DNA from: a virus
Length of the DNA stretch: 64,000 nucleotides
Virus record (IMG/VR): IMGVR_UViG_3300017761_003320
Coordinates: 64,001-128,000 of that record
Strand: one strand, 5' to 3'
Position 1 is the first letter of the stretch. Each line of letters begins with the position of its first letter. Of the stretch, positions 49,894-54,940 are shown piece after piece. The translations under genes and the position numbers were made by a program. The notes beneath the pieces are model-generated. The model saw nothing but the letters and a program-made list of their open reading frames with translations. It did not search any database and had not been told where the DNA came from.

Positions 49894-51153
49894 ATGGCAA
49901 ATCCTTTAAAGGTCAAAAAAACAGGCGCTACATTTAACGGCCTGCAGCTTATGACAAATGCAGAGATGAATTATACTGTCGATGTTGTTCTTAAATTATT
50001 TGCCAATACAAATTCAGGTCTTGGTACTGTAAATATTGATGGTGCTACTGGTACATCAATTGGTACATTTGTTGATACTTCTAGATCAGGTTCTGTTGGT
50101 GATCACCCAGTTGCAGATTCACCTACAACAGTAACCACATATACATTTAAGCAAGATGTTACAACTGCTGCAACAGAAGTTATAACAAGGCCGATTGAAC
50201 ATTCATCTAGCGGTATTAGACAACAAAATGATACACAGCTAAATGCATCAATCATCACACGAGCCTTAGCTAACTGTGCAGCATCTGGTATAGGTTCATA
50301 TGCATTACAACCTAGTGCTCCAGTTGGAACTTGGACATCAGTCGGCACCATAACAAATAGTGTTATCGGTGCAACCAATACATCAACCTTGTGGAGAAAA
50401 ACTGGTGGTACTGCCCCAACCGCGGTAAGACCATTAAAATATCAAACTAGTCCGTCAAAATCTTTCAAAGAAATGACGGATGTTGAAATACAAGGTCTTA
50501 CTAATAGATTTCGTAATCAGATCATATCTACTGGTATTTGCACTTACAAATTACAAACATCAGCTCCATCACCAGGCACATGGACTACAACCGGTGCGGC
50601 CTTTGATGATACTAGAAATACACTAGCATCTGCGAACTATACCGGATCATATACTGGTTCATATGGAGCCACTTATAGTGGATCCTTTGCAGGATCTTAT
50701 GCAGCCACTTATAGTAGATCCTTTGCAGGATCTTATGCAGCCACTTATAGTAGATCCTTTGCAGGTTCTTATTCCGGTAGCTATTCCGGTACATATTCTG
50801 GTCCTTATTCAGGATCTTATACAAGAAATAGATCACAAAATTTTCAAACATTTTTTACTGGATTTGGTGGTACGATTTTTACTGGATTCTTTACAGGATT
50901 TTATACAGGGTTCTATACAGGATTTTATACAGGATCTTATACAGGATCTTATACTGGTAGCTATACTGGGAATTTTGCTGGTACATATACTGGTAACTAT
51001 ACTGGGAATTTTGCTGGTACATATGCTGGTAACTATACTGGGAATTTTGCTGGTACATATGCAGGATCATATGCCGGATCATATGCTGGAACAACTATTC
51101 AAGCAAGTTCAGCTACCATTTCAACAGTCAGCCTTTGGGTGAGGACCGCATAA
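49894..51153 (+). CDS. Fibre-like protein with (Y/F)xGx tetrapeptide repeats
   Basis: 38 four-residue units at 50638-51093; Thr/Ser/Gly-rich. Confidence 0.7.
   Translation: MANPLKVKKTGATFNGLQLMTNAEMNYTVDVVLKLFANTNSGLGTVNIDGATGTSIGTFVDTSRSGSVGDHPVADSPTTVTTYTFKQDVTTAATEVITRPIEHSSSGIRQQNDTQLNASIITRALANCAASGIGSYALQPSAPVGTWTSVGTITNSVIGATNTSTLWRKTGGTAPTAVRPLKYQTSPSKSFKEMTDVEIQGLTNRFRNQIISTGICTYKLQTSAPSPGTWTTTGAAFDDTRNTLASANYTGSYTGSYGATYSGSFAGSYAATYSRSFAGSYAATYSRSFAGSYSGSYSGTYSGPYSGSYTRNRSQNFQTFFTGFGGTIFTGFFTGFYTGFYTGFYTGSYTGSYTGSYTGNFAGTYTGNYTGNFAGTYAGNYTGNFAGTYAGSYAGSYAGTTIQASSATISTVSLWVRTA
50638..51093 (+). repeat. 12-bp periodic repeat array with two 36-bp x3 sub-arrays
   Basis: GCCACTTATAGT(A/G)GATCCTTTGCAGGATCTTATGCA x3 from 50668; TATACTGGGAATTTTGCTGGTACATAT... 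x3 from 50962. Confidence 0.9.
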
Positions 51154-51618
51154 ATGTCTGATAGACAAATTTTGGAACCATATTGGGCATCCAATTTAAA
51201 AAATCAAATAGTATGTAAATTTAAATATGCTGATGGGCGAGAAGTTGTGGCATCCGTATCGCAAACGGATGAAGGTAATCCTGATTGGGATGAAATAATT
51301 CAGAAATTTACTATGGAAGAAATTGATGCCAATACGGCCGCAGGTGTTCAAAGACATGAAGAAAATCGTTTAAAACGTCAGATGGAGCAGCAACGTCAAG
51401 CCGATAATTTTAGACGTGAAGCTTTGTTTATGGCTAAGAGTGATGCATTTGAAGTTGATTTGGTAAGAACTTCTACAAATACTGAGTTAAAATCAAAACT
51501 TAGAAAAGCGGCCTCTATTATGGAAGTTACTTTACTTGCATCTATGATTGCGCTAGATAATTACAACATGCAAAAGGTGACAGTCGATGCCGAAACGTCG
51601 TCAGCAAACACAGCTTGA
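51154..51618 (+). CDS. Hypothetical protein (possible fibre chaperone)
   Basis: Directly abuts the fibre gene; helical C-half. Confidence 0.65.
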   Translation: MSDRQILEPYWASNLKNQIVCKFKYADGREVVASVSQTDEGNPDWDEIIQKFTMEEIDANTAAGVQRHEENRLKRQMEQQRQADNFRREALFMAKSDAFEVDLVRTSTNTELKSKLRKAASIMEVTLLASMIALDNYNMQKVTVDAETSSANTA

Positions 51619-52345
51619 GCCTAGCAAAGGCTATCTTCTTGTAGCATCATATTCAAAAGCTTATTATGATGCTGCAATAAGATGCGCGATATCTATTCGT
51701 GACCATCATCCTGATGCTAGAATAGTTCTGTTTACCCATGCAGATTTTATTAAGGATTCCGATAGATATCTATTTGAAGATGTCATAACTGGTATTCCGT
51801 ATCATATGCGCGCAAAATTATGGGCCCTTGATAAGACTCCATTTGATATAACTCTATATCTAGATTGCGATACTGAAATATGGCATAATGATATTTCTAA
51901 TATATTTGACCTATTAGGTGATAGTGATATCGCAATAACTAATATTCGAGAATATGCTGGAAAAGGCACTAATGTAAGTAAGACTGAAAAAATGACACAT
52001 CACTGTGGTGTATTTCTTTATAGAAAAAATACAACCATTAGCTTTATGCAAAAATGGTGGTGTGATTATTTGATTCAAACAACACGTGGTCCATGGCCAT
52101 ATCCCGAATATGAATCTAATATGAAACCTTGGGATCAATTTACTTTTTGGCGGTTGTTGAAAGAAGAATTTAAAAATATTAAAGTATCAATCTTGCCAGA
52201 TGATGCTAGATGGAATTTCATACATCTGTATCTAGATAGTGAGACCGATAAGCCAATAGTGGTCTGGCACTATACAATACCCAGAGGAATCGTAGATGCA
52301 AACTCTATCAAAGATACATCCTATTCTCCAGAAAATTTTAGATGA
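51587..52345 (+). CDS. Glycosyltransferase, GT-A
   Basis: KLWALDKTPFDITLYLDCD (DxD), CGVFLY and WDQFTFW motifs. Confidence 0.8.
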   Translation: MPKRRQQTQLEPSKGYLLVASYSKAYYDAAIRCAISIRDHHPDARIVLFTHADFIKDSDRYLFEDVITGIPYHMRAKLWALDKTPFDITLYLDCDTEIWHNDISNIFDLLGDSDIAITNIREYAGKGTNVSKTEKMTHHCGVFLYRKNTTISFMQKWWCDYLIQTTRGPWPYPEYESNMKPWDQFTFWRLLKEEFKNIKVSILPDDARWNFIHLYLDSETDKPIVVWHYTIPRGIVDANSIKDTSYSPENFR

Positions 52346-52940
52346 CTTTTCTGATTGGTTTTTCCAACAAGATTTGTCACAATTAAAAATACAAAGACGA
52401 GATGATTTTAAGAAAAATCTATCTTACATAGAATGCACTAATAGAGAATATCTGGAGTCGGCCTTACCGACTCCGGAGAGATTTGGTTTTCCTAGAGACT
52501 GTTATGGTATTGATATGATCATACACCATTCGAAGGAAAGAGAGTTTTTTCCGACTTATTTTGATCCAGTGCTTAGAAAACTAGATGATGATCTAATGAC
52601 ATTTCTTGGCGCTAGAAATAATGCATTAAAGATGTATTATCCACCAGAAGGTTTTATAGGATGGCATAATAATGGAAATGCACATGGTTACAATATAGTA
52701 ATAACATATAGCAAAACTGGTGATGGTGCATTTTATTCATATGATTTGAAAACCAAAGAAATCATAGAATACAAAGATAAGCCAGGTTGGAATATAAAGG
52801 TTGGATATTTTGGTAAATTTTCAGAACCTGATACTGTATTTTGGCATTCGGCTAGAACCGATTGTGATAGATTGACATTAAGCTATATCATATATGATAA
52901 AAATATTTGGGATAATATGATCGAAGATATTCAATCATGA
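52296..52940 (+). CDS. 2OG-Fe(II) oxygenase-like (DSBH) protein
   Basis: YYPPEGFIGWHNN...FWH...R.TLSY; HxN in place of HxD. Confidence 0.6.
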   Translation: MQTLSKIHPILQKILDDFSDWFFQQDLSQLKIQRRDDFKKNLSYIECTNREYLESALPTPERFGFPRDCYGIDMIIHHSKEREFFPTYFDPVLRKLDDDLMTFLGARNNALKMYYPPEGFIGWHNNGNAHGYNIVITYSKTGDGAFYSYDLKTKEIIEYKDKPGWNIKVGYFGKFSEPDTVFWHSARTDCDRLTLSYIIYDKNIWDNMIEDIQS

Positions 52941-53582
52941 TTTGGTTAACATTTGAATAACTTCTGCATCTGACATCTTTAGACTAAACACAGAATCAAC
53001 TAATGAAGTTCTATTGAAAATCCATTTCATATCCAAAATATCATAACCATCTGGATATTCAAATGTAATAAATTCATCATTACCAAAATATTTGATCATA
53101 TATTCTTCACTGGCCGATATGAATTTTTCATATAGATCATGATGATTACCACCAGTCCACATCATGATTGATGAATTTAATATGGTAAAATACATACCCA
53201 AAGTCTTTTTTCGTAAATGAGTATTTACTAAACTTTTATGCGTGATTTTAGATGGGTTTTGTCCTATGATTAGCTTGTCACCAAATTGTAGCATTTCATC
53301 TATAGGCTTTAAAAGCTTCGAATCTAGATCAAAAAATATACATTTTGCACCATCTTCACATAATCCTGGCTTAAATAATAGAAGCTTGAACCACCAACCT
53401 TCCAAATCATGATCACGCACATCTATCGGAATAATATCTGTGCCTATAAATTCGTCGGGGTCATCGGTTAGGCAATAGTGTTTGAATGGTGAACCGAGAT
53501 AAATCTTACTTGATTCATTAATGGCCATAACATATTTTTTGTTATATTTTGGCTTTACTAATATGGAGTATAGATGATACAT
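52935..53582 (-). CDS. Glycosyltransferase-like protein, GT-A
   Basis: KY...YV, HYCLTDD, WWFKLLLF, FFDLD, NSSIMMW and GNDEFI motifs; start at CAT 53580-53582 with GAGG RBS. Confidence 0.75.
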   Translation of the reverse strand: MYHLYSILVKPKYNKKYVMAINESSKIYLGSPFKHYCLTDDPDEFIGTDIIPIDVRDHDLEGWWFKLLLFKPGLCEDGAKCIFFDLDSKLLKPIDEMLQFGDKLIIGQNPSKITHKSLVNTHLRKKTLGMYFTILNSSIMMWTGGNHHDLYEKFISASEEYMIKYFGNDEFITFEYPDGYDILDMKWIFNRTSLVDSVFSLKMSDAEVIQMLTKS

Positions 53583-54315
53583 GTCGACCTCTATAAAATT
53601 CATATGCTATAAGTGGGGAAAGAAATACCCAAGTATATATGTTAACAGATTATATAATATGGTAAAAGCACATTACAATGGCAGCTTTTCTTTTCACTGT
53701 ATAACTGATGATATTTCAAATATTAGAAATGAAATTATAACACACGACATTAATAAAATTGCATCATTTCGTAAAGATATAGGATCAATTTTTACAATAG
53801 AAAAATTAAGTTCATTTAAACCTGGTTTTTTGGATGGAGGTCGATTTGTTTTACTAGACCTTGATATCATAATACATGGTAATTTAACAGAATATTTGAA
53901 TGGGTGTTTTACAGAATTTAGATTGATCAAAAATTATTGGCAACCTGATTATGCAGATATAACCCATTATGGCGGTAATTACTGTTCAATAAATTCATCA
54001 TTCGTTACATGGAAAGATGATCAAGCATCACACATATATGATTTTTATATGAAAAATCTCAATAAGATTTCTCGGGTTTACAATAGTTTTGATAGATCAT
54101 TATATTATCTTCAAGATGGGCAATATGCATTTCATTCAAAAGGAATAGTATATTCTTATAATGGAGGGGCCCACTATCCTGATGATAGGTCCGTAGGATT
54201 ATATAGAGATTCTTATAAAATTTGCATATTTAATAATTCTCATGGTTATGGTATGGATATTAACAATACAAAAAATTGGGCATTAAGCATGTGGAAAAAA
54301 TATGATACCTTATAA
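53581..54315 (+). CDS. Glycosyltransferase-like protein, GT-A (paralog of the divergent neighbour)
   Basis: CYKWGKKYPSIYVNRLYNMV, FHCITDD, LLDLDII and INSSFVTW motifs. Confidence 0.8.
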   Translation: MSTSIKFICYKWGKKYPSIYVNRLYNMVKAHYNGSFSFHCITDDISNIRNEIITHDINKIASFRKDIGSIFTIEKLSSFKPGFLDGGRFVLLDLDIIIHGNLTEYLNGCFTEFRLIKNYWQPDYADITHYGGNYCSINSSFVTWKDDQASHIYDFYMKNLNKISRVYNSFDRSLYYLQDGQYAFHSKGIVYSYNGGAHYPDDRSVGLYRDSYKICIFNNSHGYGMDINNTKNWALSMWKKYDTL

Positions 54316-54940
54316 AGATATGAAAGAAAAAATTTCATCCAAATATAATAAGTTAATAAGAACGTCAGAATGGCCAATATCTCATGTATTAAATGATAGC
54401 ATAGATCCTTATTATTCTAGTATAGAATATGAAATTGTCGAATCTTTGATACCGCATATTGAAAATGGTTCTAAAATTGCCATATTAGGTTCTTGGTTTG
54501 GTATAACTTTTTTAGAAACATTTTCTTTAATAAATCACAAAATAGATACGATAAAGCTATTTGATTATGACCCAACGGTTGAAATAATTGGTAAAAAAAT
54601 ATCCAATATGGTAGATATTGATGTCAAATATCTAAGAAAAAATGTAATTTTTGATGATATAACAAAAGATATAGATGGGTTTAATATCTTCATAATACCC
54701 TATATTCATATGCTATTACCTTTTGATGATATTATTCCAAATGCACCTAAAAATAATTTGATTTCATTGTCTGGTTCAAATGATGCATTTTTAATGAGAT
54801 ATGGAAATCCTATATTCAATGTAGATGATCTAAAGCAACAAACAACATTTTCCGATGAATTGTATATCTCAGAAAAAGAAATGAAATTTCTGGATAGGAG
54901 ATTAAGTTTTAAAAAATCGATTTTAACGGCAAGAATCTAA
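54302..54940 (+). CDS. Class I SAM methyltransferase-like protein
   Basis: KIAILGSWFG motif I followed by LFDYD acidic strand. Confidence 0.55.
   Translation: MIPYKDMKEKISSKYNKLIRTSEWPISHVLNDSIDPYYSSIEYEIVESLIPHIENGSKIAILGSWFGITFLETFSLINHKIDTIKLFDYDPTVEIIGKKISNMVDIDVKYLRKNVIFDDITKDIDGFNIFIIPYIHMLLPFDDIIPNAPKNNLISLSGSNDAFLMRYGNPIFNVDDLKQQTTFSDELYISEKEMKFLDRRLSFKKSILTARI

Follow-up and report, generated by a model that had tools for sequence, protein, structure and literature searches.

A tetrapeptide-repeat protein of a T4-like phage probably forms a long self-paired β-ribbon with mirrored arms

How can the two halves of a repeat array within one protein chain come to mirror each other unit by unit? 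The question is raised by a gene at 49894..51153 (plus strand, stop codon included) of a 64,000-nucleotide stretch of viral DNA, here called the window, which comprises bases 64001-128000 of IMG/VR record IMGVR_UViG_3300017761_003320, a complete virus genome of 155,201 bp with direct terminal repeats. The gene, single-copy in this record and delimited from the list of open reading frames (ORFs) and from homolog searches, encodes a protein of 419 amino acids (aa), which we call the hairpin protein. In frame, 50638-51093 consists of 38 consecutive tetrapeptides, a GGTI unit between two runs of [Y/F]xGx units. Our analysis makes it probable that this protein consists of a head and an out-and-back, antiparallel two-stranded ribbon that turns at a Gly-Gly pair.

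An initial annotation of the sequence had described 19 units running from YTGS to FTGF, a GGTI turn and 18 further units, and the translation bears this out exactly. The outgoing (left) arm comprises 19 units (50638..50865, plus strand like all other features of the gene; aa 249-324), and is followed by the turn unit GGTI (unit 20; 50866..50877; aa 325-328) and by the returning (right) arm of 18 units, units 21-38, from FTGF to YAGT (50878..51093; aa 329-400). Strands were predicted in both arms by AlphaFold2 (AF2). Counted outward from GGTI, units starting with Phe fall at 1, 2, 9, 12 and 15 on both arms, and units 9, 12 and 15 read FAGS on the left and FAGT on the right, again as annotated. 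Each arm also carries its own 36-bp tandem repeat. Tandem Repeats Finder delimited 3.1 copies at 50662..50772 on the left (YAAT-YSRS-FAGS, 96% matches) and 3.1 copies at 50950..51060 on the right (YTGN-YTGN-FAGT, 97% matches); the annotated starts, 50668 and 50962, denote the same arrays in another phase. The right-arm repeat lies opposite the left-arm repeat in the hairpin. Copies within one arm are 92-97% identical, whereas left and right repeat units are at most 56% identical, or 44% when compared as reverse complements. The two expansions are therefore separate events, as had been proposed, and they are recent.

Taken alone, this arrangement is weakly significant, as we estimate by reasoning that a 9-unit block in an 18-unit arm would be placed in mirror position in roughly 1 of 10 cases. 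Family-wide tests, described below, put mirror placement far beyond chance, and the weight of the evidence comes from relatives. Two other origins of the symmetry were considered and rejected. An inverted duplication of the DNA does not explain it: neither arm is the reverse complement of the other, and such a complement would in any case encode something other than the mirror peptide. Nor is it an assembly artefact, since the record is complete with terminal repeats and the rule holds in many independent assemblies. Three additional frames over the array (50612-50851, minus strand; 50663-51142, plus strand; 50891-51094, minus strand; 67-159 aa) are by-products of the 12-bp periodicity and not genes.

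We searched for relatives of the hairpin protein and identified 757 homologs of 313-724 aa at E≤1e-3 in a word-indexed search. An exhaustive search with the N-terminal domain alone yielded 353 cluster representatives of up to 1490 aa, the giant members (1276-1490 aa) being linked at E 1e-18 to 1e-21. All homologs are unnamed metagenomic proteins. Four features recur throughout the family: a head domain ending near the invariant W230, [Y/F]xGx arrays, an aromatic centre around two Gly residues, and a conserved C-terminal end, LW[VI]R[TI]A, with the invariant W415. Some members (287-296 aa) are almost without an array, so the array acts like an insert of variable size placed between the final two strands of the head; from these forms, with almost no hairpin, the family extends to hundreds of residues per arm. 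The super-period of the array also differs among relatives, being 8, 12 or 22 aa, the 22-residue period corresponding to five units plus two residues.

Arm lengths were compared only in proteins with exactly one array break of at least three residues, which avoided any choice of turn. Among 48 distinct pairs of left and right lengths, 31 had a left arm exceeding the right by 3-5 aa, against 1.6 expected with uniform break placement, and left arms ranged from 16 to 143 aa. The two lengths were correlated with a Pearson r of 0.97 and a slope of 0.97, close to the 1:1 covariation that the initial annotation had expected of homologs. Close relatives form a series of 19/18 (window), 18/17, 15/14 and 11/10 left/right units, and another close pair, 19/18 vs 22/21, differs by one extra three-unit block per arm. 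Relatives as close as 70-90% identity in neighbouring genes span the range from 11/10 to 19/18 units. The claim that length changes only by compensating expansions thus stands in part: close relatives shift equally on both arms, but "only" is too strong, as a few relatives have unequal arms.

We then asked at what resolution the arms are matched. Position 1 was compared between left unit k and right unit k in those proteins that lack odd inserts. The presence of Phe was correlated at a unit shift of 0 (phi 0.75, or 0.81 beyond unit 3), with period echoes of at most 0.47 at shifts of ±3 and ±6 and values of about 0 at other shifts; a parallel alignment of the arms gave a phi of at most 0.29 for Phe and a cross-correlation of at most 0.15 for inserts. 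The sets of Phe units were identical on both arms in 17 of 27 proteins and were clade-specific (5/8/11/14, 6/9/12/15, 5/7/10/12, 4/11/13, 5/7/9/11/13 and 23, with 9/12/15 in the window). Counts of mirrored position-1 pairs were 53 for Phe-Phe and 256 for Tyr-Tyr, vs 5 for Phe-Tyr and 7 for Tyr-Phe. The strongest mutual-information pairs were L1(k)-R1(k) (z = 47) and L3(k)-R1(k-1) (z = 35), the latter reflecting Arg at position 3: left-arm Arg at this position faces Gly in 54 of 56 cases and never another Arg, and it adjoins Phe in 80% of cases vs a background of 18%. Inserts of one or two residues (KT, SA, RN and similar) are mirrored as well, with a cross-correlation of 0.39 at a single shift plus a 22-residue echo. 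From Phe as well as from inserts, the centre of the mirror falls on G325 of GGTI (i+j of about 650, numbered as in the window protein). Scanning the longest relatives (>480 aa) for a mirror without allowing gaps told us nothing, because inserts interrupt the register and Phe and Tyr are mixed differently in some clades. Tandem duplication cannot make mirror symmetry and the DNA is not palindromic; selection on antiparallel arms lying side by side is therefore the only explanation we found for it.

We utilized AlphaFold2, run as monomer only, to model the window protein (80-sequence alignment) and a natural short homolog, P0133 (316 aa, 90-sequence alignment). The model of P0133 had a mean predicted local distance difference test (pLDDT) value of 94.5 and a predicted template modelling score (pTM) of 0.84, with pLDDT 76-83 in the array, and revealed one continuous two-stranded hairpin (strands 238-270 and 273-314) with a two-residue turn at G271-G272. 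In this model W231 stands opposite W312, which fixes the register at i+j = 543. For the window protein, pLDDT exceeded 90 in the N-terminal head domain (aa 1-248; 49894..50637), which is predicted to be β-rich with two long helices, and was 90-97 in aa 400-419. The C-terminal closing strand (aa 401-419, ending in SLWVRTA; 51094..51150), with L414 and W415 invariant and R417 and A419 almost invariant, is therefore predicted to dock back on the head and close it. The array itself was modelled as strands 287-310/338-361 and 237-265/381-417, symmetric about residues ~324-326. Both models fold back at Gly-Gly, as the initial annotation had foreseen for GGTI; a parallel solenoid or disorder did not appear, in keeping with the missing Phe and insert signal in the parallel alignment. 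Arm covariation, mirrored Phe and inserts, and the P0133 model thus agree on a long antiparallel hairpin.

Several results weigh against this picture or against its details. The array of the window protein was modelled at low confidence (pLDDT 29-52), even where its strands are symmetric about the turn. In P0133 the modelled register of 543 departs by five residues from the covariation register of 548 and places the turn one unit early, so either the model or a simple intrachain reading of the contacts is wrong in detail. The model may slip on the repeats, there may be a bulge near the base, or some couplings may occur between subunits; a weaker second set of couplings, at a unit shift of -2, agrees with the model. 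The sequences entering the covariation tests are related, so that their counts are not independent events, and the shift controls retain that relatedness. In P0002 (18/14 units), P0007 (21/17), P0035 and P0127 the arms are unequal, differing by 2-3 extra units. Several apparent exceptions to arm matching proved to be mis-called turns (e.g. P0023), and some of the unequal-arm relatives lie on contigs of 1.6-5.6 kb. Of the 15 related contigs from IMG/VR, five (loci L006, L008, L014, L015 and L016) stop within the array or just short of it, so repeat collapse during assembly is a plausible source of unequal arms, and the short-contig cases need caution.

We propose the following architecture, in which the fold-back, the mirror register at unit resolution, the closure of the head, the compensated length changes and the genomic context are reported as results. 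Residues 1-248 and the last ~19 residues would form a compact β-rich head, from which the chain would leave as ~76 residues of [Y/F]-x-G-x, reverse at Gly-Gly and return antiparallel over ~72 residues, giving a two-stranded β-ribbon about 25 nm long if fully extended. The register of the arms would be kept by a residue rule, Tyr pairing with Tyr and Phe with Phe at the aromatic position of mirrored units, with Arg at position 3 facing Gly beside a Phe-Phe rung and with one- or two-residue inserts at mirrored heights. In the covariation register, position 1 would face position 1 and position 3 would face position 3, which would place aromatic rungs and Gly gaps on one face of the ribbon and small hydroxyl residues on the other. 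The strictness of the Phe-Phe and Tyr-Tyr rule suggests that the aromatic face is buried, possibly in an oligomer. Length would change by slippage of 12-, 24- or 36-bp repeats, followed by selection for a change of the same size at the corresponding height of the opposite arm.

The fold of the head was compared with 48,161 chains using VIA-align, for both models. With the window model, the top four matches were all MABP (MVB12-associated β-prism) domains (Z 7.0, 6.8, 5.8 and 5.5; next unrelated match 4.1), and with the P0133 model the top five were (Z 5.6, 5.5, 5.0, 4.7 and 3.4; next unrelated match 2.3); these Z values are middling, which counts against the comparison, and Z below 8 lies within the program's stated range for chance arrangements. 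The matches were Mpf2Ba1, Plu-MACPF, MVB12B and perforin-2 P2, plus MPEG1 with the second model only, over 110-120 aligned residues. The related prisms Plu-MACPF (2qp2) and Mpf2Ba1 (8b6v) belong to the only consistent fold matches of the head across the two models. Foldseek searches of the PDB with both models gave nothing at E≤0.001, and BFVD likewise gave nothing significant. The head had no sequence match in Pfam, PHROG or the PDB and none to the curated MABP model. The agreement between the models is modest, and we consider it likely, but weakly supported, that the head shares the MABP β-prism fold, which we do not take as family membership.

Relatives' neighbourhoods were taken from IMG/VR loci. 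Upstream of the hairpin gene, T4-type baseplate families are represented by a tail tube cap, a hub/lysozyme and three wedge-subunit matches, and between these and the hairpin gene are genes for a 2101-aa protein (phrog_358), a 74-aa virion structural protein (phrog_473) and a 196-aa fibre-like protein. Downstream are a 154-aa ORF, five small genes, head-tail connector genes, terminase and sheath. Twelve related IMG/VR contigs keep the same arrangement of genes. Judged from gene content, the hairpin gene sits in the baseplate/tail-fibre module of a T4-like phage, and its product would be a virion appendage protein of that module.

The 154-aa ORF (51154..51618, plus strand) follows the hairpin gene in every related contig that reaches that far, at 57-88% identity. 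The hairpin-gene stop abuts its start at 51151-51156 (TAA ATG), which suggests coupled translation of the two genes, and its product could be an assembly partner of the hairpin protein. It matched no family in Pfam or PHROGs, and a relationship to the "tail assembly chaperone" of Phage C48C1 was rejected, as no similarity was found. The five small genes after it (51587-54940) keep the same order in all related contigs. Two of them, 52935-53603 (minus strand) and 53581-54315, matched the phage glycosyltransferase family phrog_1962 weakly (E 9e-5 and 1e-5); the remaining ones had no match. Together the five genes may serve to modify the ribbon, which is rich in hydroxyl residues.

What might such a ribbon do? 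Its tip region, units 16-24 (50818..50925; aa 309-344), reads YTRN RSQN FQTF FTGF GGTI FTGF FTGF YTGF YTGF in translation. The Phe-rich tip noted in the initial annotation holds family-wide: Phe makes up 17-18% of residues within 12 aa of the turn vs 5-6% in the arms, and 44 of 61 proteins have Arg or Lys within 16 aa of the turn. Family arrays are virtually free of Lys, Asp, Glu and His, Arg being the only common charged residue. We put forward tentatively, at slightly less than an even chance, that the ribbon projects from the virion and that its hydroxyl-rich shaft and Arg-flanked aromatic tip contact the host envelope as a length-tunable probe or anchor. The uncharged shaft, the Phe/Arg tip and the two-fold spread of arm length in near-identical phages lead us to favour this role over that of an internal strut. 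A hyper-extended hairpin that binds membranes is already known from an MABP prism, that of MPEG1: described as "extraordinary elongated", it has a hydrophobic tip ringed by basic residues, and this tip binds anionic lipids and lipopolysaccharide (PMC6753088, PMC7593815). The hairpin protein would resemble the MABP domain of MPEG1/perforin-2 in layout, with a hairpin of two strands leaving a putative prism and ending in a hydrophobic tip next to basic residues; the strand pair that is extended may or may not be an equivalent one. The MPEG1 hairpin differs in being short and without repeats, and the hairpin protein has no MACPF domain and no sequence similarity to MPEG1.

The most serious alternative concerns the assembly state. 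The hairpin could be one third (or one sixth) of an oligomeric needle whose Tyr/Gly face forms a buried core, as in the tip of T4 gp37, and the Phe-Phe and Tyr-Tyr rule would then reflect the burial of hydroxyl pairs, possibly across subunits; we regard this as nearly as likely as its opposite. The crystal structure of the gp37 needle (D10-D11) is reportedly that of Bartual et al. 2010. In this trimer, which has the same out-and-back topology, residues 811-881 and 1010-1026 form the collar D10, and G921 packs against F970 between subunits (PMC6957217). Both proteins would be parts of T4-type fibres in which the chain travels to a tip and returns, the sequences on either side of the shaft form one basal domain (by AF2 and covariation in the hairpin protein), and a long, thin β-shaft shows Gly-aromatic packing; gp37 has an aromatic receptor-binding tip. 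A strict Phe-Phe versus Tyr-Tyr rule is easier to explain for buried than for exposed pairs, intersubunit couplings could produce the mismatch between the monomer model and covariation, and the low pLDDT of the long monomeric ribbon fits as well. Yet the shaft of the hairpin protein is built from a simple four-residue unit, with arms that vary in length through repeat slippage between about 4 and more than 140 residues, and its basal domain has a different, weakly MABP-like fold. Searches for gp37 homology gave no PHROG, Pfam or PDB sequence match and no fold match, T4 protein 37 appearing in BFVD only at E = 0.25. The iron-site HxH motifs of gp37 are missing from the window array, and His stands at 0.00 in arms and tip across 61 family members. 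A parity argument also points away from a simple closed barrel, which could not join mirrored position-1 residues if the intrachain register of the AF2 model is right.

The remaining alternatives fit the data less well. The ribbon might be an internal strut or ruler along another virion protein, or its Phe tip might be plugged into one (e.g. the 196-aa or 2101-aa protein), with no host contact. A strongly hydrophobic tip would be sticky if exposed on the virion, the gene is embedded with conserved synteny among large baseplate and fibre genes, and a partner with a periodicity of its own could be contacted at the mirrored heights of Phe. However, a two-fold difference in arm length among close relatives is unlike a ruler for a conserved structure, as is a family in which the hairpin can be nearly absent or have hundreds of residues in each arm, and we consider a strut unlikely. 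The notion that the array pairs in no fixed way, being a disordered low-complexity spacer or simply something for the products of the downstream glycosyltransferase-like genes to modify, draws on the Tyr/Gly/Ser-rich composition, the low pLDDT of the long form and the conserved downstream cluster with its weak glycosyltransferase matches; it is very improbable, because disorder would not impose matched arms, mirrored Phe, mirrored inserts or the rule that Arg faces Gly, and because the short homolog was confidently modelled as a hairpin. Modification of a folded ribbon would, for its part, be compatible with the architecture proposed here. Least probable of all is a parallel β-solenoid or other stacked repeat without fold-back. 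Regular short Gly repeats are typical of solenoids and some homologs have a 22-residue super-period, but super-periods vary, the Phe and insert correlation is sharply antiparallel with no parallel counterpart, AF2 gives a hairpin and the C-terminal strand returns to the head.

We also compared the antiparallel ribbon with other known designs. Like the transmembrane stem hairpins of β-pore-forming toxins (aerolysin, anthrax protective antigen, CDTb and lysenin), which were the top Foldseek matches, all at E >0.1, it would be a long two-stranded hairpin. Unlike them, its array has no hydrophobic/polar alternation, positions 2 and 4 being small and polar and position 1 alternating with Gly, and the length of its shaft greatly exceeds the thickness of a membrane. 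OspA and engineered self-assembly mimics form water-exposed single-layer β-sheets without a classical core, with Tyr ladders and Gly-aromatic pairs; their strands run across the long axis, whereas the two strands of the hairpin ribbon would run along it. A collagen-like or polyglycine-II fold was rejected, as Gly occupies every fourth and not every third residue and the models show β-strands. The window protein matched no Pfam family (E≤0.01) and no PHROG, a PDB sequence profile search returned nothing at E≤1, and the ESM Atlas returned only unnamed viral clusters. Among 90 relatives compared with Pfam, the only matches were stray glycine-zipper ones (PF13441 and relatives) in low-complexity sequence of six proteins (best E 1e-4); the window protein had none. 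Our literature search on tetrapeptide or Tyr/Gly repeat fibres in T4-like phages or cyanophages found no description. The design thus occurs in no family model, solved structure or paper that we searched, while the out-and-back tip of gp37 and the prism-borne hairpin of MPEG1 were already known.

Among cultured phage records searched with tblastn, the sole match was Phage C48C1 (Kyanoviridae; OQ984149.1), in the head domain only, at 28-29% identity; it is the only cultured-phage record in which we found a relative. Here a giant ORF (locus L001, 7983-16972, truncated where the locus ends; >3,300 codons by record coordinates), registered as "hypothetical protein", begins with a head-domain homolog (29% identity) and further on contains YxGx-like arrays with 46% identity to aa 248-402 of the window protein. 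Seven metagenomic relatives of 415-418 aa (P0005, P0006, P0011, P0013, P0016, P0018 and P0022) have four arms, of about 48, 21, 24 and 45 aa, joined by two turns rich in Phe and a plain one, with a one-residue insert at the predicted junction. This layout fits a ~24-aa stem forking into two hairpins, in each of which the left arm would exceed the right by one unit.

Whether these proteins represent a new class of fibre is, in our judgment, evenly balanced. Such a class would be a self-complementary β-ribbon written in a four-residue alphabet, with pairing of Tyr with Tyr, Phe with Phe, Arg with Gly and insert with insert; it would evolve like an RNA stem, slippage on one arm being compensated later on the other, and would supply host-envelope probes with a reach tunable between a few nanometres and more than 100 nm, some of them forked into two tips. 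If this is true, it would offer a rare natural case of compensatory co-evolution of length and residues inside one protein chain, and a minimal scaffold for designed β-ribbon rods. It would also annotate hundreds of unnamed proteins of aquatic T4-like phages as a simple fibre module of effectively programmable length, in which the number of units sets the length and the mirror rules set the register. The differences in length among near-identical phages suggest adaptation to host surface layers.

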